DNA of 15,112 nucleotides from a virus (lineage: Duplodnaviria; Heunggongvirae; Uroviricota; Caudoviricetes): IMG/VR virus record IMGVR_UViG_2541047905_000022; one strand, written 5' to 3'. This document shows positions 1 through 14,676 of the stretch, in pieces; the first letter of the stretch is position 1, and each line of letters begins with the position of its first letter. Below the pieces are notes generated by a model, which saw only the letters and a program-made list of their open reading frames with translations, was not told the origin of the DNA and did no database searches. Both the position numbers and the translations under genes were made by a program.

Positions 1-798
1 TTAATGAACATTCGTCGCCGAAAACGAGTCTGTATCATTAGCGTGATGCAGTCTCTGCAAAGGATCTTGTTGATAAAATTGACAGAAACGTTGCCACAAT
101 GAAGGGAAACGAGGAGCAAAAAGTTCTGGGGCGCTAAAGAAATATTCAGAAAGTACGGCAAAACATTCAGCAGGATCACTGGCAGCATAAGCATCAATGC
201 TCGCCGCATTCTCACCAACTAATTCGATTTCTTCCTGAATGTTGTTCATTGCAGCATGAAGATCGTGTTCCCAGCCAGCAACCTCACGCAACGAAATAAA
301 GGGAACTCCGCTGGCGCGATCGCCGTTACGGGTGTCCAGCTTATGAGCGACTTCATGAATAATCAGGTTAAAACCAGAAGCATCAAAAGAATCTTGTATA
401 TCCAACCAGTTCAAAACGATAGGCCCTTGCTGCCAGCTCTGACCTGACTGAACAATACGTTGGTTATGCACCAGACCGATATCGTCTTCCCATTCATCAT
501 CGACCACAAATGGCGCAGGATAAATTAAGACTTCATGAAAACCATCCAGCCATTCCAGTCCTAACTCCAGAACGGGCAGGCAAAATAGAAGTGCTATCCG
601 GCAGCTTCTTAATGAATTCAGCTCAAAGCCCTGTAAAGGAACAAGCCGTTTTTGCTGTAAAAAACGTTCGGCAAGAGCGACCAATTTGCTTTGTTCCTGT
701 TCTGTCAGACACGTTAAAAGGGGGATCGATAGTGCTTCCTGCCAGGGAAGGGCAGTTTGATGTGCTGATTCTTGTACTTTCCAGGGCCACTTAATCAT
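1..798 (-). CDS. mtfA: Mlc titration factor A (MtfA/YeeI), 265 aa
   Basis: ORF 1..837 minus; from the internal Met the product reads [23 protein letters not shown]..., which I recognise as the enterobacterial MtfA N-terminus; HEVAHKLD metallopeptidase-like motif present; stop TAA at 3..1. Start placed at the ATG at 798 rather than the ORF-track start at 837. Confidence 0.9.
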
Positions 799-891
799 CG
801 TTTTGCTCGCAAACTCGTCACTTGAACAAAATTGCACGGACAGGGACTGTTAAAATGCCAAATTTCCTGGCATCATGGCAACCATCTGAAC

Positions 892-981
892 GGAGAGATG
901 CCGGAGCGGCTGAACGGACCGGTCTCGAAAACCGGAGTGGGGGCAACTCCACCGGGGGTTCAAATCCCCCTCTCTCCGCCA
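892..981 (+). tRNA. serU: tRNA-Ser (anticodon CGA), 90 nt including encoded CCA
   Basis: Acceptor stem GGAGAGA (892-898) pairs with TCTCTCC followed by G-CCA (979-981); anticodon stem CCGGT/ACCGG with 7-nt loop CTCGAAA, anticodon CGA at 926-928; long variable arm typical of class II tRNA-Ser; TTCAAATCC T-loop. Confidence 0.9.
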
Positions 982-1026: not shown

Positions 1027-1062
1027 CTTGGAATTACTTGGAATATTTTCTTGGAATATTTT
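1027..1062. repeat. Tandem direct repeats CTTGGAAT(A/T)(A/T)TT at the attL-proximal end of the integrase gene (possible arm-type integrase binding sites)
   Basis: CTTGGAATTA (1027-1036) followed by two perfect copies of CTTGGAATATTTT (1037-1049, 1050-1062); these overlap the last codons and stop of the integrase gene, immediately next to the tRNA 3' end. Confidence 0.4.
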
Positions 1063-2059
1063 CAGGTAACGGGACATCAAGTGTTGGTGAAACTTTAACC
1101 TTCCTGTCATAGATTAGCACTTGCCCTTCGGTTTTGTGACCAGAGAAAAGTTGCTTATCCCGGCTGCTTCCTTCATAGTCTGAAATTCCTTTCGCCTTCA
1201 GATCATGAAAGGTGAAGTCGGTTAAAATACCTGAAATTTTTCCAGCACGATTTCTTGCTTCTACCCACATTTCGTTAAAGCCTTTGTACATATATCGGTT
1301 GCCGTATTGATTGCTGATCACATAGGCAGATTTTGGTAACTGTTTTGCTTTTTCGATCGCTGCCTGTAATCGTGGACTCCATGCTTTTATCTGTTTTTTT
1401 CCGGTTTTCCCTTGCTGGATGAATATCCCGTCGTTTCCAATCTGTTCCCATTTCAGCGATAACACATCGGAAACCCTCGCTGCACACAGATAGGCAATTT
1501 CCATTGCGATAAAAACAGGAAGAGGTGCAACGCTTAATACTGCCTGGTATTCTTTGTCGGTTACATATCGTTCGCGGTTTTTGGCCTTGAATTTACTTAC
1601 ACCTGCACATGGGTTAGCCTTGACGTACCCTCGCTCATACCCCCAACTGTAAACACGGGACATACTGCTTTTTTCATGGTTGGCTTGCGTTTTACTCTGC
1701 TCCCCTCTTTTGTCCATGTATCGACGGATGTGTTCTGGTTTTATGGAATCCGCTGGTACCTTACCGAATACGGCAAGCAACTTTTTTTGATGTTGCAGAT
1801 AATCTTTTTGTGTTCTTGGACTAAGGTCACTGTAACAGGCGCTGGCGAGGAATTTTTCCCACAAGCGACCGAATGTCATTGCACGATCGCGATTATTTAC
1901 AGTTTCCTCATACTTTTTCCATAAAGCAGCTAAACCATCCTTGATGGCGGTTAGTGTGACAGATTCTCTGGATGTTGGTTTCCATACATAACTATATTTA
2001 TTTGGGTATACATTTGGAGGTAATTTTTCGTGTTCAGGATTTTTCCTTCGTCTTCCCAT
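1034..2059 (-). CDS. int: Phage integrase, tyrosine recombinase family, 341 aa
   Basis: ORF track 1034..2059; C-terminal half carries a tyrosine-recombinase-like signature (CAARVSDVLSLKWEQI ... FTFHDLKAKG ... VLIYDRK); gene ends 52 bp from the tRNA 3' end and points toward it, the classic tRNA-attL-int arrangement. Confidence 0.9.
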   Translation of the reverse strand: MGRRRKNPEHEKLPPNVYPNKYSYVWKPTSRESVTLTAIKDGLAALWKKYEETVNNRDRAMTFGRLWEKFLASACYSDLSPRTQKDYLQHQKKLLAVFGKVPADSIKPEHIRRYMDKRGEQSKTQANHEKSSMSRVYSWGYERGYVKANPCAGVSKFKAKNRERYVTDKEYQAVLSVAPLPVFIAMEIAYLCAARVSDVLSLKWEQIGNDGIFIQQGKTGKKQIKAWSPRLQAAIEKAKQLPKSAYVISNQYGNRYMYKGFNEMWVEARNRAGKISGILTDFTFHDLKAKGISDYEGSSRDKQLFSGHKTEGQVLIYDRKVKVSPTLDVPLPENIPRKYSK

Positions 2060-5274: not shown

Positions 5275-5832
5275 TCAACAATGAATTTTTAGCAATTGCT
5301 CCACAGTCATATTTTTAATTGCGCTCCGGTTTACAAGAGTCCATCCTTGTTTCTCCAGATAAAACCGGAAGGTATCCAGGGTGCAGACCATTGCGCCGTC
5401 AGGAACGGTTTCAGTGAATTTGATATTGCCGTGTTCGTCGAGACGGATAACCAGGGTGCGTCCGTCCCCGTGAATCATTTTGTCGGGAGACGGGGCGTTA
5501 TTCTGGCGCAGTTCTGCTTCCATGCGGTCGAACTCAGCAATGTATGCCTCTTTAAATGCAGCGGCTTTTTTGCCAGTGAAGCCCATCACCAGGAAAACGA
5601 AGCCGTTTTTGGTGATTTGGTACATTGGGAGTTTGCGCCCGGTTGAGTCGGTGTATTCGCTTGACACAAAATTGTGCTCAGTGAATTTTGCTGAACAGTC
5701 CAGATTGCGAATTTTATCCAACACTCGTTCGTGGCGTTTGCCAAAGAACTCGGCGATCGCAACAGACGTAGTGACAGCGCGACCATTTTCGATGGTTACG
5801 TCAGGGTGAGAAAGGGTAAGGATAGTAGCCAT
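5275..5832 (-). CDS. rha: Phage regulatory protein Rha family, 185 aa
   Basis: ORF 5275..5889 trimmed to the internal ATG at 5832, which has a GGAGG Shine-Dalgarno 8 nt upstream; N-terminal domain MATILTLSHPDVTIENGRAVTTSVAIAEFFGKRHERVLDKIRNL... is the characteristic Rha fold sequence. Confidence 0.85.
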   Translation of the reverse strand: MATILTLSHPDVTIENGRAVTTSVAIAEFFGKRHERVLDKIRNLDCSAKFTEHNFVSSEYTDSTGRKLPMYQITKNGFVFLVMGFTGKKAAAFKEAYIAEFDRMEAELRQNNAPSPDKMIHGDGRTLVIRLDEHGNIKFTETVPDGAMVCTLDTFRFYLEKQGWTLVNRSAIKNMTVEQLLKIHC

Positions 5833-6002
5833 GATGGCAGCCTCCGCGATGAATTTGATTAACTCACCACCGAGGTTTTCCACGACCATAAGGGTGGTGA
5901 GACGTACAGGGGTGGAAAATACCGGTCATCACGGAACCCGGCCAGCCTTGCGGCTGCCCTGCACGCCCCACCATAATGCGAATGTGGCTGTGCTTAACGC
6001 AT

Positions 6003-6025
6003 AAAAAAACCGCCTGAGCGCGGTT
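6003..6025 (-). terminator. Rho-independent terminator (minus strand) between DicF and rha
   Basis: On the minus strand: stem ACCGC - loop GCTCAG - GCGGT followed by a run of 7 U (plus-strand A7 at 6003-6009). Confidence 0.5.
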
Positions 6026-6318
6026 ATGCGCCGTGAATGATTTCGGGTTTCCACGCCCGGCACCCGTTTTATGAGGTGCAGGTGCACTATAATTCCACCC
6101 GTTCTGGTTTTCAATAGCTACATTCAACATTTTCTCTACCTTTCATCACCGAAGTGAACTTTGTTGATGCGGTGCCTGGTGCCTCCAGGTGACGTTAACC
6201 AGTTAACAATTAACGTCGGATACAGAGCATTCCCGTTACGCCCGTAAAAGACCGCTTGTTTTAACTGTTCCGCGTGCGCTGAGCCGCATTCACCGCATCA
6301 CAAAATTCACTTTAAAAA

Positions 6319-6371
6319 GGGCGGCAGAGCAGTCACGGAGTAGAACTGATACCGCCAAAAGTCACCAGAAA
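6319..6371 (-). ncRNA. dicF: DicF small regulatory RNA (ftsZ-targeting antisense sRNA of dicB-type prophage operons)
   Basis: Minus-strand sequence TTTCTGGTGACTTTTGGCGGTATCAGTTCTACTCCGTGACTGCTCTGCCGCCC followed by TTTTT differs at only 2 of 53 positions from the E. coli K-12 DicF sequence as I recall it; located upstream of dicB as expected. Confidence 0.85.
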
Positions 6372-6709
6372 ATTGATAACAGAGGGCGTTGCAGCGGGGT
6401 TGTCACTTAAGCGTATGGTCAACCTGACAACCCGGTGTCCTCAACGGGGAAGGAATAACCCCGTCATACTTACCGCCGCGCCATTTCGCGGAGTGTCACA
6501 ACCGGAAGCGCACGGTCGACGAAAATTTAACGACAGGCTATCTATGAACCAGCTACCTCGCCGTGCGCTTTCGCGTTATGGTCTGACTTTTCATGGAAAT
6601 ATCCTTTCAGTAAACTGTCAGTGCCGGATTCTTATCCGTGTCCGGCGCACGACCACACGCTGTCACGAGAGGTCTCCATTCTCAACCAGTAACCTCAATG
6701 GAGGATAAA

Positions 6710-6904
6710 ATGTCAGAGCAGGAGTTAAAACTTGGTGCATGTTATTGTGTTCTCAAGGAGCTGGTACACATGCTTCCATCTACTCAGTATCAACAGTTAG
6801 TTGGCAATTTAAATCAGCGAATCGAAGCTATGTTAAAATCTGATGGTTTTAATAACGTAGAAACGCTGATGCTAAAAAGATATCTTGATGGATTAATCAG
6901 ATAA
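6710..6904 (+). CDS. Hypothetical small protein, 64 aa, encoded antisense to the leftward dicB-type operon
   Basis: ATG at 6710 with a GGAGG Shine-Dalgarno 5 nt upstream (6700-6704); ORF MSEQELKLGACYCVLKELVHMLPSTQYQQLVGNLNQRIEAMLKSDGFNNVETLMLKRYLDGLIR; AT-rich codon usage; its 3' end overlaps the convergent 116-aa gene by 12 nt. No recognised family. Confidence 0.4.
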   Translation: MSEQELKLGACYCVLKELVHMLPSTQYQQLVGNLNQRIEAMLKSDGFNNVETLMLKRYLDGLIR

Positions 6905-7243
6905 CATTTTTTTACGGCGTTCATATTCGTTAATATTTATGAAGCCTGTTGCCAGAAGCAGTTCGTTAATTTCATGGTTGTTTGGCTGTTTCTGGCTCTT
7001 TGAACTGGGATCTTCCACTTCTTTTTCTGCAAATTGTTTTGCTGTATCCTCTGTGCCATGGATATTTAAAGCTGTATCTGAAAACAGCCCAGTAAACGCA
7101 TCGCGCACATTACGAGCCATATTATCAGTGTCTTTTTTTGTTACCGATTCCAATTCAAGTTCGTTCAGACGATGACGAAGTGTGTGTGCTGCAATCTCCT
7201 GGATTGAAGGAGGTAAATCTTTAAATTCCATCGTCAACCTCAT
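6893..7243 (-). CDS. YdfB/YdfC-like uncharacterized protein (dicB-type operon), 116 aa (112 aa if started at ATG 7231)
   Basis: ORF 6893..7243; start overlaps the stop of the upstream small gene (coupling); an internal ATG at 7231 has a GAGG Shine-Dalgarno. Sequence EFKDLPPSIQEIAAHTLRHRLNELE resembles what I recall of Qin YdfB. Confidence 0.65.
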   Translation of the reverse strand: MRLTMEFKDLPPSIQEIAAHTLRHRLNELELESVTKKDTDNMARNVRDAFTGLFSDTALNIHGTEDTAKQFAEKEVEDPSSKSQKQPNNHEINELLLATGFININEYERRKKMLSD

Positions 7244-8297: not shown

Positions 8298-8832
8298 ACA
8301 GGTTTGTGAGGCTCTGGATGCCTGGGTATGTCGACCAGGAATGACACAGGAGCAAGCGACGATATTAATCACGGAAGCATTCTGGGCTCTGAAAGAACGC
8401 CCGAACATCGATGTTCAACGCGTCACGTTTAATGATGGCGAGGTTGATCAACGGGCGCTGGGCGTTAACCGGGTGAAGATATTCGAACGCTGGAAAGCTA
8501 TCGACACCAGGGATAAGCGGAAAAAATTCACGGCGCTGATTCCGGCAATTATGGAGGCTATCCGAATTAGTGATTTCAGGTTGTATCGTGAGATCAGTGA
8601 TGGAAAAAGCATTACGTACATGATCGCCGGATTAAACAAAGAATATGGCGATGTGGTGGAGTCCGGGCTGCTTTTTGCGGATCCAGCTGTTGTGGAACGT
8701 GAGACTGACGAGCTTATAGAAAAAGCTATTGCTTTCAAGCATGCGTATCGTCAGCAATATCAATATTACTTTGCAGATAAACAAATGTCTGCCAGGGGTT
8801 TGTATGAGTATCGATGCACTACGATGGGCTAA
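8281..8832 (+). CDS. YdaT-family protein (CII-like / toxin YdaT domain), 183 aa
   Basis: ORF 8281..8832; segment RVKIFERWKAIDTRDKRKKFTALIPAIMEAI parallels the Rac YdaT motif (KIFRW..KD......ALLPAIEKS); overlaps the dicC-like 3' end by 17 nt, as in ydaS-ydaT pairs. Confidence 0.7.
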   Translation: MKITPEQVCEALDAWVCRPGMTQEQATILITEAFWALKERPNIDVQRVTFNDGEVDQRALGVNRVKIFERWKAIDTRDKRKKFTALIPAIMEAIRISDFRLYREISDGKSITYMIAGLNKEYGDVVESGLLFADPAVVERETDELIEKAIAFKHAYRQQYQYYFADKQMSARGLYEYRCTTMG

Positions 8833-9844
8833 AAAGGTGAAAACCGGCAGTTCATCCAGTAAGTCTGTATTGACCTGGCTTGCTGATATGTGCGGTGCCG
8901 ATTTGTGTGCATACCCGTCTGTATCTGCACTGGCAGAAGTAACGGAACTAAACAAAAAGACTGTGCAGGACAGCTTACGACACCTGATGGAGATTGGGTT
9001 AATTGTTGATACCGGTGAGAGAAAAGGCAGAACAAAGCAAATTGTGGTGTACCGACTTATCGGTGTAGAAGAAAGTGTTGCCGAGCCTGAATACACCCAA
9101 AAACGGGAGTCTTTAAAGGTGGGTAAAATTGGTGCTGTTAATAAAAACAGTACCGAAAATGGTTATGTTTCAGCACAAAACAGACCCAAAAACGGAACTC
9201 TTAGCTGCATGGAAAATAACCAAAGACACCCAAATTTTCCATCAAAGACACCCAAAAACGGATCACGGAACCCAAAGGAACCCAAAGATCTAAACCCCAC
9301 ACATAACGCACGCGAGAGTGCTCCGACCAGTGAGCAGGAAGTTTTGTCGTTACAGGCAGCACCCCTTGTATTCCTGGATGGCCTGAGCGAACCCATCGGA
9401 AAATTTCCGATGACCGATAGCTGGTATCCGTCACGGGATTTTCGACGACGGGCTGCGTTGTGGGGGATGGCTTTGCCGGAGACAGAATTTACACCTGCTG
9501 AACTTGCCGCCTTCCGGGACTACTGGGCAGCGGAGGGGAAAGTGTTTACTCAGATTCAGTGGGAGCAGAAATTCGCCCGTCACGTAAATCACGTCAGGGC
9601 GCAGGTTAAACCAGTCAGCAAGGGGGTAAACCATGCAGCAGCACCAGGTGGCACCGCATCACGGGCAGTTCAGGAAATTCGGGCAGCACGTGAGCAGTGG
9701 GAACGTGAAAACGGATTTATCAGCGACGGAAACGGTCTGGAAGCTGTGGGAACTCATGGGGGAGGTTTATTCGAACCGCTGGACCCAGAAGAACGGGGCC
9801 GCACCTTCGAAGCTCTGGATTGCACAGATTGGCGCGATGACTGA
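8804..9844 (+). CDS. Phage replication initiation protein (lambda O-like replisome organizer; N-terminal HTH, central linker, C-terminal DnaT-like region), 346 aa
   Basis: ORF 8729..9844 trimmed to ATG 8804 (AGGGG Shine-Dalgarno upstream); N-terminus MSIDALRWAKKVKTGSSSSKSVLTWLADMCGADLCAYPSVSALAEVTELNKKTVQDSLRHLMEIGLI is typical of phage replication-protein N-terminal domains; iteron-like repeats lie inside the gene; the P-like gene follows. Confidence 0.8.
   Translation: MSIDALRWAKKVKTGSSSSKSVLTWLADMCGADLCAYPSVSALAEVTELNKKTVQDSLRHLMEIGLIVDTGERKGRTKQIVVYRLIGVEESVAEPEYTQKRESLKVGKIGAVNKNSTENGYVSAQNRPKNGTLSCMENNQRHPNFPSKTPKNGSRNPKEPKDLNPTHNARESAPTSEQEVLSLQAAPLVFLDGLSEPIGKFPMTDSWYPSRDFRRRAALWGMALPETEFTPAELAAFRDYWAAEGKVFTQIQWEQKFARHVNHVRAQVKPVSKGVNHAAAPGGTASRAVQEIRAAREQWERENGFISDGNGLEAVGTHGGGLFEPLDPEERGRTFEALDCTDWRDD
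9182..9290. repeat. Iteron-like direct repeats (candidate phage origin of replication inside the O-like gene)
   Basis: Five copies of (A/G)ACCCAAA-containing repeats: AGACCCAAAAACGGA (9182-9196), AGACACCCAAA (9225-9235), AGACACCCAAAAACGGA (9247-9263), GAACCCAAAGGA (9268-9279), GAACCCAAAGATC (9278-9290); they fall in the linker between the two domains of the replication protein, as in lambda ori. Confidence 0.5.
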
Positions 9845-10298
9845 GCAGCAAATCCGACAGGTCTGCCGCCAGTGCATGGACCGCTGCCGGGCGGGTGAAA
9901 CATGGCCTCCGGACCTGGCTGAGTTTGTGGCGCTGATTTCAGAAAGCGGGGCCAATCCATTTGGCCTGACGGTGGATGCTGTGATGGAGGAGTACCGCCG
10001 CTGGCGTGATGAGTCCTGGCGATATGACGGAAGCGACAAATATCCGTGGCCTCAGCCTGTGCTGTACCACATCTGCCTCGAAATGCGTACCAGAGGGATT
10101 GAGCGCCAGATGACGCAGGGTGAGTTAAAACGACTTGCGGAACGGCAACTGACGAAATGGGCAAAGCATGTTGGTAACGGGATGAGTGTTCCGCCAGTGC
10201 GACGACAACTGGAAGGGGCGAAACACCCGCAAGGGCCAACGCCAATTGAACGGCTGAAACAGGAATACGAACGCCGGAAGGCAGCTGGTTTTATTTGA
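9633..10298 (+). CDS. Lambda P-like replication protein (helicase loader), 221 aa
   Basis: ORF 9633..10298 with a strong AGGGGG Shine-Dalgarno 6 nt upstream; region YPWPQPVLYHICLEMRTRGIERQMTQGELKRLAERQLTKWAKHV aligns with lambda P (SYPWKSNAHYWLVTNLYQNMRANALTDAELRRKAADELVHMTARI). The start is uncertain (alternatives at 9756 and 9837); as drawn it overlaps the O-like gene by 212 nt in another frame. Confidence 0.7.
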   Translation: MQQHQVAPHHGQFRKFGQHVSSGNVKTDLSATETVWKLWELMGEVYSNRWTQKNGAAPSKLWIAQIGAMTEQQIRQVCRQCMDRCRAGETWPPDLAEFVALISESGANPFGLTVDAVMEEYRRWRDESWRYDGSDKYPWPQPVLYHICLEMRTRGIERQMTQGELKRLAERQLTKWAKHVGNGMSVPPVRRQLEGAKHPQGPTPIERLKQEYERRKAAGFI

Positions 10299-11117: not shown

Positions 11118-11543
11118 ATGGCAAAAGTATTTACACAAGAAGAGCGGGAAAAAATTAAAGGGCAGGTTGTTGAACTTGTACGTCTGAGCGGTCGCGAGAC
11201 GTTGCGGCAACTGGAAGCCAAGACAGGTGCGACAAGATATCTGATGAGTGTTCTCGCCAGAGAGCTGGTTGCCAGTGGCGATGTATACAACTCTGGTTAC
11301 GGGTTATTCCCGTCTGAACAGGCGCGTAAGGACTGGCAAAATGCTCGCAAAAAACTCTCAAGGGCAAAGGTGAAGAAACCTGCAGTGGTTGATCCGGACC
11401 TTATCTGGTCGTTACCAGACGGCGAAATACGCCGCTACGACAGGCGCCTGAATATAATCTGTCGCGAGTGCCGGAAGAGCGAAGCTATGCAGCGTGTACT
11501 GGCATTTTATCAAGGAAATGTTAGGTATTTTAGACGTTACTAG
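11118..11543 (+). CDS. Hypothetical phage protein, 141 aa
   Basis: ORF 11103..11543 trimmed to ATG 11118 (GGAGG Shine-Dalgarno 5 nt upstream); starts 16 nt after the previous gene's stop; basic C-terminus with a CRECR motif; no family recognised. Confidence 0.65.
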   Translation: MAKVFTQEEREKIKGQVVELVRLSGRETLRQLEAKTGATRYLMSVLARELVASGDVYNSGYGLFPSEQARKDWQNARKKLSRAKVKKPAVVDPDLIWSLPDGEIRRYDRRLNIICRECRKSEAMQRVLAFYQGNVRYFRRY

Positions 11544-11696
11544 ATTAAAGAGCATTAGTTCAGATGTGAATTGACATTTTCATGGCGCAGGGTAGAGCCA
11601 GCGTGGTTGTCCGCTTTGCGTCAAAACCAGATATTACCAGATTTAGACATATATTCCCGATAGCCCTGCTCTGATGCTACACTCTGTGCTATTTTC

Positions 11697-12383
11697 ATGA
11701 CCCCAATAAAAATATTTATGACTATTGCTGATTTCAAACGGCCTAAATTGGAGCTCCCAAACGGGGCAAACAAACTACTACTGCACTCTTGCTGTGCTCC
11801 ATGTTCCGGTGAAGTGATGGAGGCGCTTCAGGCCTCGGGAATCGACTACACCATCTTTTTCTACAACCCGAACATTCATCCTCAGAAAGAGTATTTAATT
11901 CGTAAGGATGAAAATATTCGCTTTGCTGAACAACACGGCGTGCCGTTTATCGATGCTGATTACGACACCGACAACTGGTTTGAACGTGCCAAAGGAATGG
12001 AATGGGAGCCTGAGAGGGGGATCCGTTGTACCATGTGTTTTGACATGCGTTTTGAGCGGACAGCGTTGTACGCTGCTGAAAATGGTTTCAGTGTGATCAG
12101 CAGTTCACTGGGCATTTCACGCTGGAAAAATATGCAGCAGGTTAACGAGTGTGGGCGGCGAGCTGTTGCGCATTATCCGGGTATGGTGTACTGGGATTAT
12201 AACTGGCGCAAGCAGGGCGGCTCGTCCCGTATGATTGAAATCAGCAAGCGCGAAAAATTCTATCAGCAGGAATATTGTGGCTGTGTGTATTCTCTGCGCG
12301 ATACCAATCTACACCGCAAATCTCAGGGACGCCCTCTTATCAAAATTGGCCAACTCCACTACGGAAAAGAAGAGAAGGAGTGA
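11697..12383 (+). CDS. queH: Epoxyqueuosine reductase QueH (DUF208 family), 228 aa
   Basis: ORF 11697..12383; hallmark QueH motifs [14 protein letters not shown] (N-terminal), [15 protein letters not shown] (central) and [13 protein letters not shown] (C-terminal). No clear Shine-Dalgarno before either candidate ATG (11697 or 11718), so the start is uncertain. Confidence 0.8.
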
Positions 12384-12415
12384 TTTTATGGATCACCTTT
12401 CTGATTGATTTCATA

Positions 12416-12444: not shown

Positions 12445-12499
12445 GGCTGCGGGTGCTTGAGGCTATCTGTCTCAGGCATGAACACTGAAAGGCAGATAG

Positions 12500-12572
12500 A
12501 GAAAAGCCCCAGTTAACATTTCGCGTCCTGCAAGACGCTTAACATTAATCTGAGGCCCAATCTATGTCTCAC
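12500..12572 (-). ncRNA. Candidate Sok-like antisense RNA of the hok locus
   Basis: Minus-strand -35 TTGCCT (12607..12602), 17-nt spacer, -10 TAACCT (12584..12579); the predicted antisense transcript would cover the GAGG Shine-Dalgarno (12552-12555) and in-frame upstream ATG (12564) of the hok leader. The 3' end is not defined; a GCGTC/GACGC hairpin lies at about 12522-12537. Confidence 0.3.
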
Positions 12573-12620
12573 AAATGTAGGTTAGCCTCTTACGTGCCGA
12601 AAGGCAAGGGGAAGCAGGCT

Positions 12621-12776
12621 ATGAAGCAGCAAAAGGCGATGTTAATCGCCCTGATCGTCATCTGTTTAACCGTCATTGTGACGGCACTGGTAACGAGGAA
12701 AGACCTCTGCGAGGTACGAATCCGAACCGGCCAGACGGAGGTCGCTGTCTTCACAGCTTACGAACCTGAGGAGTAA
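12621..12776 (+). CDS. hok: Hok/Gef family type I toxin (HokD/RelF-like), 51 aa
   Basis: ATG at 12621; product MKQQKAMLIALIVICLTVIVTALVTRKDLCEVRIRTGQTEVAVFTAYEPEE, which I recognise as Hok-family (essentially HokD/RelF); single transmembrane helix plus conserved C-terminal tail. The ORF track extends it in-frame to 12564 (70 aa), a mok-like upstream start. Confidence 0.85.
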   Translation: MKQQKAMLIALIVICLTVIVTALVTRKDLCEVRIRTGQTEVAVFTAYEPEE

Positions 12777-12845
12777 GAGACCCGGCGGGGGAGTAATCTC
12801 CCGCCACCTCTGATGTGCCAGGCATCCTCAACGCACCCGCACTTA

Positions 12846-12866
12846 ACCCGCTTCGGCGGGTTTTTG
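12846..12866 (+). terminator. Rho-independent terminator of the hok mRNA
   Basis: Stem CCCGC - loop TTCG - GCGGG (12847-12860) followed by TTTTT (12861-12865). Confidence 0.7.
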
Positions 12867-12941: not shown

Positions 12942-13592
12942 ATGAATGAAAATCAGTTAGCTCCTTGTTGGGAATTTCAACCTTATCTTGCTGAAAACTA
13001 TGTTCGCCACTTGTTGGCGGAGATCGCTAACGTACTTGAGCAGCTGTACTATCATAAGCACGCATTAGACAGCAACTGGTCTGAAGGTGTAAGGGCTTAT
13101 GATTGGGTCAGAAATCATCTTATTCAAAATGAAGATGCAATTCCTGGCCTTGAGATGATTTCCAAGGGGTTGGACTATGTAGTTGCTTTAAATAAAGTTC
13201 CGCTACAATTTACCAAAGATTGCATTAATAACCCCAAAAAGAAACATCGTCTGCGTCGAAATAAAGTAGAGTATGAGCAGCTCTCATTGTTTGGTGATGT
13301 TGAGGCTGAGCAAGATATTACATGGCGAGTCATAGCTGAGCCTTTTTTATCCGAAGAGGGCGATGGTGAATTAGAGTCCACACTGCCTCGTTGGGAGGTA
13401 GCTCTTGTTGGATTTAATACTTATGGTGCTCAGATTAGTATAGTTTCTCATCAATCTACAGCATCGATGCCGCTTATGCCTCTTGATTATAACACACTCC
13501 CTGACGAAGCGGAGATTAATAAGGTGCCTCTTCGTCGGCGTACGAAGGATAAAGATTTGGATGTGAGCAGTGATGGAACATCAGGTGAATAA
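12942..13592 (+). CDS. Hypothetical protein of unknown function, 216 aa (first gene of a two-gene cassette)
   Basis: ORF 12942..13592; no family recognised; helical N-terminal half, basic patch KKKHRLRRNK, acidic C-terminal tail; visibly more AT-rich than the flanking replication genes; 3' end overlaps the next gene by 20 nt. Confidence 0.7.
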   Translation: MNENQLAPCWEFQPYLAENYVRHLLAEIANVLEQLYYHKHALDSNWSEGVRAYDWVRNHLIQNEDAIPGLEMISKGLDYVVALNKVPLQFTKDCINNPKKKHRLRRNKVEYEQLSLFGDVEAEQDITWRVIAEPFLSEEGDGELESTLPRWEVALVGFNTYGAQISIVSHQSTASMPLMPLDYNTLPDEAEINKVPLRRRTKDKDLDVSSDGTSGE

Positions 13593-14676
13593 CTTCACTG
13601 AGTATCGGGGTGATAAGCTCAAACTAGCGAGAATGGCTGTTGGGCTTTCTTGTGAAGAGTTAGCCGAAAAAATTGGCAAGACAAAGCAATTCGTTAGCAA
13701 ACTGGAGAAGGGGTGCAGGCCATCGGAGCAATGTCTTGAGTTAATATCTTCAGCGCTTATGATTAAGTCCAGTTTTCTTTTTACTGAACGAAAATACGCT
13801 CTGGAAAGTGATGTCTGCCATTTTCGGAGTAAGAAGTCCAGGACTCAAACGCTGACTAATAGTGTATTGGCCAGGGCTGAGATTCTTAATATTATAATTT
13901 CTGCTGTTGAAGGTGAAATCGAATTTCCTGACGTTAACATACCGGAGCACCCAGGGGCTGAATTACTTACTCCGAATGATATTGAGCGAGTGGCAGAAGA
14001 TTGTCGCCGTGCCTGGAATTTAGGTCTTGGCCCTATATCATCAATGGTTAAATTGGCGGAGAGTTTAGGGGTAATCGTTGCGCATGTTACGGGAGTCGAT
14101 GATCGTGTTGATGCTTTTACTGTTCACAATAACAGGCCTGTTATCATCAGGAACAATGTTAAAAAAAGCATATGTAGATTTCGCTCTGATTTAGGTCATG
14201 AATTAGGGCATTTAGTAATGCATGAGGGCATAACGACAGGTGATAAACTTACGGAATCACAAGCCGATCACTTTTCGAGCGCCTTATTAGTTCCCAGGTT
14301 ATCTTTCATTAAAGAATTTCCACGAATACGAGGTAAGCAATTCGACTGGAATGCTCTGGTTGAATTTAAACTTAGATGGAAAATCAGCCTTAAAATGTGT
14401 ATTTATCGAGCCAGCGCATTAGGCTTATTGACCCAGGAACAGGCAAGAACTGGCTATATGCATCTTAATTCCAGAGGGTATACGAGAGTTGAACCTGGTG
14501 ATGAACTTTTGCGCCCTGAAGAACCCGGCATGCTGGCCGAGGCGATTGAAATGCTGGATGATGCAACCTGGCTAAGAATTCTTATGAAAACTGGCTTGAG
14601 CCAAGATTTAATTCGTGAGTTGTTCTCCATCAACAGACCTATTACAAATCCAAGAAATATTTTCCAGATTGTTTGA
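13573..14676 (+). CDS. HTH XRE-family regulator fused to ImmA/IrrE-type (M78, COG2856) zinc metallopeptidase domain, 367 aa
   Basis: ORF 13570..14676 with ATG at 13573; N-terminal HTH LKLARMAVGLSCEELAEKIGKTKQFVSKLEKG; peptidase HEXXH motif in DLGHELGHLVMHE; domain order HTH then ImmA-like is the fused version of ImmR/ImmA or CapH/CapP-type regulator pairs. Confidence 0.8.
   Translation: MEHQVNNFTEYRGDKLKLARMAVGLSCEELAEKIGKTKQFVSKLEKGCRPSEQCLELISSALMIKSSFLFTERKYALESDVCHFRSKKSRTQTLTNSVLARAEILNIIISAVEGEIEFPDVNIPEHPGAELLTPNDIERVAEDCRRAWNLGLGPISSMVKLAESLGVIVAHVTGVDDRVDAFTVHNNRPVIIRNNVKKSICRFRSDLGHELGHLVMHEGITTGDKLTESQADHFSSALLVPRLSFIKEFPRIRGKQFDWNALVEFKLRWKISLKMCIYRASALGLLTQEQARTGYMHLNSRGYTRVEPGDELLRPEEPGMLAEAIEMLDDATWLRILMKTGLSQDLIRELFSINRPITNPRNIFQIV

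Follow-up and report, generated by a model that had tools for sequence, protein, structure and literature searches.

Two unrelated types of enzyme have been described for the reduction of epoxyqueuosine (oQ) to queuosine (Q) in tRNA. The E. coli step, carried out by QueG, is described as cobalamin-dependent in a passage of PMC4646009 that cites Frey 1988. The DUF208 (QueH) proteins have been reported as cobalamin-independent oQ reductases (PMC5615194; PMC10221552). Both enzymes are found in one cell in Staphylococcus aureus, where they show distinct expression profiles, which the authors relate to the supply of each cofactor (PMC13443448). In Shewanella the step is regulated when phages infect the cell, with a shift from oQ to Q (bioRxiv 10.64898/2026.03.05.709803). 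Phages are also known to use the Q-precursor pathway for DNA modification (PMC6884629).

The QueH family is well characterized, and the gene analyzed here is a phage-borne addition to it, already identified as QueH in RefSeq. It lies in a stretch of viral DNA of 15,112 nucleotides (IMG/VR record IMGVR_UViG_2541047905_000022; hereafter the window), in which an initial annotation had recognized a prophage-encoded epoxyqueuosine reductase. A literature search (QueH with prophage or phage, DUF208, WP_000150294) found neither a paper nor an experiment dealing with the prophage gene of E. coli. The present analysis adds the prevalence of the gene, its universal redundancy with queG, its single origin in the Enterobacteriaceae, the tight cassette that carries it, a promoter-like element upstream, and the purifying selection acting on it.

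Results

queH lies where the cargo region of a lambdoid prophage begins

The window takes in the left portion of a lambdoid prophage whose integration site is tRNA-Ser(CGA), with the host gene mtfA alongside (Table 1). The integrase gene is followed by an ORF of excisionase size, the genes for an 824-aa exonuclease and for Rha, the C4, IsrK and DicF sRNAs, and then the cI-like repressor, cro-like and cII-like genes. Next come an O-like gene with a DnaT domain, a P-like gene, DUF1627, DUF977, queH, the sok/hok locus and a RosmerTA pair. This order places queH at the edge of the replication module, where the cargo region begins. The prophage location proposed in the initial annotation is well founded on the integrase at tRNA-Ser(CGA), the cI/cro/cII and O/P-like genes, DUF1627 and DUF977, and the same placement of queH in phage HannyBb. 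The true start of the P-like gene is probably farther downstream than that of the ORF, near the O-like stop; the RmrT and RmrA genes also overlap each other.

The match to RosmerTA indicates that the region 3′ of queH is a hotspot for defence and addiction cargo. Sister copies of queH all lie directly 3′ of a DUF977 gene and are followed by variable cargo (hokD, DUF1971 or KwaB-like genes), which shows that the slot after queH is a variable accessory hotspot. In the prophage of E. coli 7/2 (locus L166, 5875-7514) the slot is occupied by a hypothetical gene and a gene for a ‘Kiwa KwaB-like domain’ protein, and in locus L164 (6281-6619) by a DUF1971 gene. Among 80 IMG/VR loci encoding an identical protein, DUF977 was found upstream in 71 of the 75 that could be evaluated and hok downstream in 53 of 76. 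Sister prophages are integrated at other sites; that of strain 4/1-1, for example, lies next to ompW and that of strain 7/2 at a Qin-like locus. queH therefore travels as part of exchanged modules, not with any one integrase. The best match to the window among complete E. coli genomes reached 86% coverage and 97.5% identity, indicating that this prophage is a mosaic.

Table 1. Positions of the features of the window (position 1 is its first nucleotide).
Feature	Position	Strand	Remarks
Host mtfA	1-837	-	On the other side of tRNA-Ser(CGA) from the integrase gene
tRNA-Ser(CGA)	892-981	+	Integration site
Integrase gene	1034-2059	-	53 nt from the 3′ end of tRNA-Ser(CGA)
Rha-family regulator gene	5275-5889	-	sRNA trio directly upstream
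C4 antisense RNA	5890-5978	-	78.6 bits
IsrK sRNA	6003-6079	-	67.7 bits
DicF sRNA	6319-6370	-	71.5 bits
O-like ORF (DnaT domain)	8729-9844	+	Overlaps the P-like ORF
P-like ORF	9633-10298	+	Overlaps the O-like ORF by ~210 nt in a different frame
queH cassette, ~720 bp	11668-12387	+	Unit common to different prophages and chromosomal loci
Extended -10-like element TGCTACACT	11675-11683	+	~35 nt before ATG 11718; putative promoter of queH
In-frame upstream extension of the ORF	11697-11717	+	Probably untranslated 5′ leader
queH CDS, preferred start	11718-12383	+	221 aa plus stop; based on PF02677, PGAP, homologue N-termini and dN/dS
CCAPC motif (Cys25, Cys26, Cys29; 221-aa numbering)	11790-11804	+	Aligns with T. 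maritima Cys9, Cys10, Asp13
CxxC motif (Cys104, Cys107)	12027-12038	+	Aligns with T. maritima Cys87, Cys90
CGC motif (Cys187, Cys189), end of EYCGC	12276-12284	+	Aligns with T. maritima Cys169, Cys171
sok/hok type I toxin-antitoxin locus	12451-12776	+	Rfam sok 120.5 bits; Pfam HOK_GEF 3e-23
PGAP hokD equivalent	12621-12776	+	Mapped annotation
Terminator-like site	12845-12862	+	After hok; the only + strand site predicted in 11-13 kb
RmrT (RosmerTA)	12942-13592	+	PADLOC 4.6e-25
RmrA (RosmerTA), HTH + M78-peptidase	13570-14676	+	PADLOC 6.2e-105; NCBIfam ‘spr1629 family repressor/antitoxin’

The product belongs to the QueH/DUF208 family

The queH product matched PF02677 (QueH/DUF208) over profile positions 1-174 of 175 with 221.5 bits (E 1.1e-65), the cut-off being 23.5 bits; at such a score the set of motifs is far above chance. 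The CCAPC, CxxC-type and EYCGC motifs, on which the QueH assignment had originally been based, were all found in the ORF. PF02677 was the only Pfam family matched. None of the NCBIfam HMMs matched the product, though PGAP names the protein QueH. In PHROGs the family is phrog_3217 (459.7 bits), labeled ‘unknown function’. Comparison with the solved QueH of Thermotoga maritima (7lc5) gave a match of E 7.8e-22 over residues 27-203, with about 31% identity.

An AlphaFold2 model of the product, of moderate confidence only (pLDDT 73.9), was compared with the PDB. The top five matches were entries of T. maritima QueH (E 1.3e-8, TM 0.71 target-normalized), which ranked ahead of the next ones, TtuA and LarE, of the adenine nucleotide alpha-hydrolase type. 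Profile, sequence and predicted fold all support the assignment of the product to the QueH/DUF208 family.

Six cysteines of the prophage protein (25, 26, 104, 107, 187 and 189) were aligned with C9, C10, C87, C90, C169 and C171 of T. maritima QueH, and all six were invariant in 20 proteobacterial homologues. Li et al. reportedly found in 2021 that these six T. maritima cysteines bind a [4Fe-4S] cluster and an adjacent iron. The position of T. maritima Asp13 is occupied here by Cys29, again a residue able to ligate metal. Every other aligned homologue, the S. aureus and Listeria contigs included, has a cysteine at this position, indicating that CCAPC is the common form and the T. maritima Asp13 the exception. 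The PDB holds entries of the C9S and D13N mutants of T. maritima QueH, and the latter suggests that the Asp13 position is regarded as mechanistically relevant.

Translation of queH most likely starts at the second ATG

The intact ORF described initially (11697-12383, + strand, 228 aa, ATG start) is present in the window. Its start coordinate, however, was not retained, because the second ATG at 11718, giving a protein of 221 aa, is most likely the real start. The RefSeq/PGAP CDS WP_000150294.1 ‘epoxyqueuosine reductase QueH’ maps to 11718-12383, and the chromosomal QueH homologues start at the methionine aligned with ATG 11718. In HannyBb, four of the seven codons of the 11697-11717 stretch are changed, so that it is not conserved as protein, and the allele of E. 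coli TUM14759 has lost the upstream ATG and has an in-frame TAA within these seven codons. Together, these four observations favor the start at 11718. The stretch is also absent from the chromosomal queH loci in the alignment of upstream regions.

A Shine-Dalgarno sequence was found before neither ATG 11697 nor ATG 11718, as had been stated for both candidate starts, and the nearest chromosomal queH orthologues were alike in this respect. The queH copies of Erwinia and Serratia do have one. The lack of a Shine-Dalgarno sequence means that translation of queH may be weak.

A 720-bp cassette carries queH and a putative promoter

Nucleotide homology to the window extended over 11668-12387 in the chromosome of Scandinavium and over 11669-12387 in the divergent prophage of TUM14759. 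These coincident limits point to a mobile unit of about 720 bp, made up of some 50 bp upstream, the CDS and four bases. Directly after 12387-12389, HannyBb, STEC2018-607 and TUM14759 have an additional segment of about 370 bp that the window does not have. In HannyBb and two E. coli prophages it separates the queH stop from sok/hok, at 6693-7066 of locus L002, 5672-6045 of L165 and 5673-6046 of L164.

Ten upstream regions, four from prophages or phages and six from chromosomes of Enterobacterales, were aligned. The only conserved block was TGCTACA(C/A)T, which Scandinavium, Kluyvera and Enterobacter also have upstream of their chromosomal queH. The extended -10 pattern TGNTANNNT fits seven of the ten regions, with the G, C, A and C invariant; two diverged prophage alleles are altered at a key -10 position (TGCCACACT and TGCTACACA). 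A generic sigma-70 scan predicted no + strand promoter upstream of queH, and it missed TGCTACACT because of the poor -35. Our proposal of a promoter is drawn from comparative conservation and not from the generic scan; we infer that TGCTACACT may be the promoter of queH itself, brought along at capture.

The terminator scan predicted none between 12383 and the hok locus, and none that separates queH from its neighbors on either side. Read-through from the early operon is therefore expected after induction. A permissive Rfam scan of the leader region (11540-11780) for riboswitches and other RNA elements gave chance-level matches only, and the predicted leader structure was no stronger than those of shuffled sequences (z = 0.31).

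queH is a predicted second oQ reductase gene in E. coli

Of 5,426 complete E. coli genomes, 995 (~18%) have the queH gene (666 bp), O104:H4, O157:H7, ST131 and APEC strains among them; 985 of the 995 copies span 80% or more of its length. Among the matches listed, every copy is annotated ‘epoxyqueuosine reductase QueH’. The K-12 queG gene, used as query with a threshold of at least 95% identity, was found in all 5,426 genomes. The prophage copy is thus predicted to be always a second oQ reductase. At the genomic level these counts fit the functional duplicate of QueG foreseen by the initial annotation. The accompanying statement that enterobacteria normally use QueG holds for E. coli; it does not hold for the wider order, in which many genera have a chromosomal queH.

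Among the records of the GenBank phage collection, one temperate isolate alone, Escherichia phage HannyBb, truly carries queH. Its gene is 95% identical, stands at the same position and is annotated ‘hypothetical protein’. The matches of Stx and other lambdoid phages to the query are confined to sok/hok, and these phages lack queH. Several further records were set aside. Those of ‘Acinetobacter phage MD-2021a’ (CAKLQH020000001.1 and CAKLQF020000001.1, 328-379 kb) do not provide a phage context, since soxR, cynX, tadA and ycaQ around the queH homologue make them look like mislabeled chromosome contigs. The Staphylococcus and Listeria ‘phage’ records with queH are UNVERIFIED_ORG contigs, and the fecal ‘phage’ scaffolds with a queH match are unannotated.

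The prophage alleles have a single origin and are under purifying selection

The closest relatives outside prophages are chromosomal, with amino acid identities of 92% in Scandinavium, 91% in Kluyvera and 88-90% in Enterobacter, followed by Symbiopectobacterium, Pantoea, Brenneria, Erwinia, Dickeya, Serratia, Photorhabdus and Providencia (79-87%). Over all the Enterobacterales genera with a chromosomal queH, the identity ranged from 78 to 92%. None of these chromosomal loci has the phage genes of the window. From the translations of flanking ORFs, their neighbors look metabolic or regulatory and the locus differs per genome; synteny is kept within Serratia, within Erwinia/Pantoea and within Rahnella.

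In a neighbor-joining tree, the prophage and phage alleles formed one clade (100 of 100 bootstraps), to which Kluyvera, Scandinavium and Enterobacter as a group were nearest. The support for one clade suggests that queH was captured only once. Between the window allele and four other prophage or phage alleles, dS was 0.11-0.45 and dN/dS 0.04-0.06; against the chromosomal genes of Scandinavium and Kluyvera, dN/dS was 0.02-0.04. The gene is therefore under strong purifying selection while it resides in prophages, which argues against a passive passenger as well as against a changed function.

Discussion

With moderate confidence, we favor the view that the gene encodes a working, cobalamin-independent QueH on a self-transcribed moron that spares B12 in the lysogen. 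The iron-sulfur enzyme would reduce oQ to Q at position 34 of tRNA-Asn, -Asp, -His and -Tyr. On this view, a single transfer from an Enterobacteriaceae chromosome would have brought queH into a lambdoid lineage, in the form of a 720-bp cassette with a short extended -10 promoter and leader of its own, and would have left the gene at the present boundary between the replication module and the variable cargo region. It would behave as a moron, with its own transcription in the lysogen and read-through from the early rightward operon once the prophage is induced. The prophage enzyme would then finish Q in the lysogen when B12 is scarce or not imported. E. coli does not synthesize B12 de novo; since QueG needs cobalamin, the prophage copy would complete Q under B12 limitation. 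By analogy, the QueG/QueH pair of S. aureus and the oQ-to-Q shift in Shewanella make such a role plausible rather than proven.

Since no terminator separates queH from the early genes, the gene may instead be expressed mainly in the early operon and not in lysogeny. It would then be a lytic auxiliary gene, transcribed only in the early rightward operon, that raises the Q/oQ ratio for phage translation with no benefit to the lysogen. The location of queH downstream of cro, cII, O, P, DUF1627 and DUF977, in the same orientation and without an intervening predicted terminator, agrees with this, as do the retention of the gene in HannyBb, a phage isolated as virions, and the response of infected Shewanella (bioRxiv 10.64898/2026.03.05.709803). 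We nevertheless regard it as rather unlikely: the cassette has a promoter-like element inherited from chromosomal loci where queH stands alone, the neighboring hok/sok and RosmerTA are typical cargo expressed in lysogeny, and the NAU share of NAY codons in the prophage is the same as in the K-12 host sample (0.55 vs 0.53), giving no support from codon usage. The universality of queG, the restriction of queH to ~18% of genomes, the absence of a Shine-Dalgarno sequence and the two alleles with an altered -10-like element would all suit a passenger of no use in E. coli, picked up by recombination and persisting by hitch-hiking because QueG already suffices. This we hold to be very unlikely, because dN/dS stays at 0.04-0.06 over a dS of 0.1-0.45 among prophage alleles, all ligand residues are intact, and 985 of the 995 copies are near full length. 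The prophage alleles, moreover, form a monophyletic and diversified clade, which speaks for long residence under constraint.

An action of the queH product on a target other than tRNA, either 7-deazaguanine in phage DNA or a component of inter-phage conflict, appears extremely improbable. Such a role would accord with a hotspot that holds hok/sok, RosmerTA and, in a sister prophage, a KwaB-like gene, and with the known use of the Q-precursor pathway in phage DNA modification (PMC6884629). The window and the 27 kb of a sister prophage contain no DpdA/TGT-like gene and none of the preQ0-synthesis genes folE, queD, queE and queC; with its partner genes absent from both, the DNA 7-deazaguanine pathway was rejected, and with it the 7-deazaguanine-related role that the initial annotation had suggested as an option. 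QueH acts after insertion into tRNA, and we know of no DNA counterpart for this step. The product gave no PADLOC match, and queH was also rejected as a defence component of known type. Finally, it shares 88-92% of its residues with the chromosomal QueH proteins of Enterobacteriaceae, whose genes stand in ordinary metabolic contexts; this identity and the unchanged selection regime give no sign of neofunctionalization.

If the prophage QueH is active, temperate phages have carried a tRNA-modification enzyme into ~18% of sequenced E. coli, and the completion of Q would be made independent of vitamin B12, for which E. coli competes in the gut. It would be a simple example of a prophage that alters the translation apparatus of its host rather than its surface or toxins. 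A wider interpretation, ‘epitranscriptomic lysogenic conversion’, in which the B12-independent oQ reductase, expressed from a promoter of its own, uncouples Q completion from cobalamin uptake, is distinctly unlikely in our judgment. Were it true, the lysogen would fare better in the gut, where B12 is contested, loss of the BtuB receptor, which colicins and phages exploit, might become less costly, and the response of tRNAs with GUN anticodons to anticodon nucleases might change; this would be a new type of fitness factor in about one in five E. coli strains. For annotation, the same family now appears as ‘unknown function’ in PHROGs, as ‘hypothetical’ in HannyBb and as QueH in RefSeq. The significance is moderate, since neither the family nor the reaction is new, the name QueH already stands in RefSeq, and the size of the benefit is uncertain.

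Comparison with T. maritima QueH (7LC5/7LC7/9DEU) shows several common features: both have the full-length PF02677 domain, six cysteines in CCxxx, CxxC and CxC motifs and, for the prophage protein as modeled, the same fold. The prophage-carried protein differs by the cysteine in place of Asp13, by about 18 extra residues at the N-terminus and by a tail of about 25 at the C-terminus; proteobacterial QueH has both of these as well. The QueH of Scandinavium, Kluyvera and Enterobacter are closer, with 88-92% amino acid identity, the TGCTACA(A/C)T element, a leader without Shine-Dalgarno sequence, and ends of nucleotide homology that coincide with those of the prophage cassette. Their genes, however, have metabolic or regulatory surroundings, whereas the E. 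coli copies examined are all in lambdoid prophages.

The phage DpdA/preQ0 clusters resemble this locus in that phages carry queuosine or 7-deazaguanine enzymes (PMC6884629), but they are built on a DNA transglycosylase and preQ0-synthesis genes that are absent here. The morons and auxiliary metabolic genes of lambdoid phages offer a nearer parallel, being likewise small units between conserved phage modules, present or absent among relatives. A promoter-like element lies upstream of queH and may be a promoter of its own; unlike morons, queH has no predicted terminator of its own.

The host QueG, which accompanies queH in every carrier genome, is predicted to perform the same reaction, from oQ34-tRNA to Q34-tRNA. 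Its fold and cofactor are unrelated, and the queH product gave no match to the QueG families; QueG, in the passage of PMC4646009 quoted above, needs B12. The QueG/QueH pair of S. aureus is a like arrangement, in which a single cell has a redundant couple of oQ reductases that differ in cofactor. Both of its genes, however, belong to the chromosomal core, whereas in E. coli the second enzyme is borne by a prophage in ~18% of the strains.
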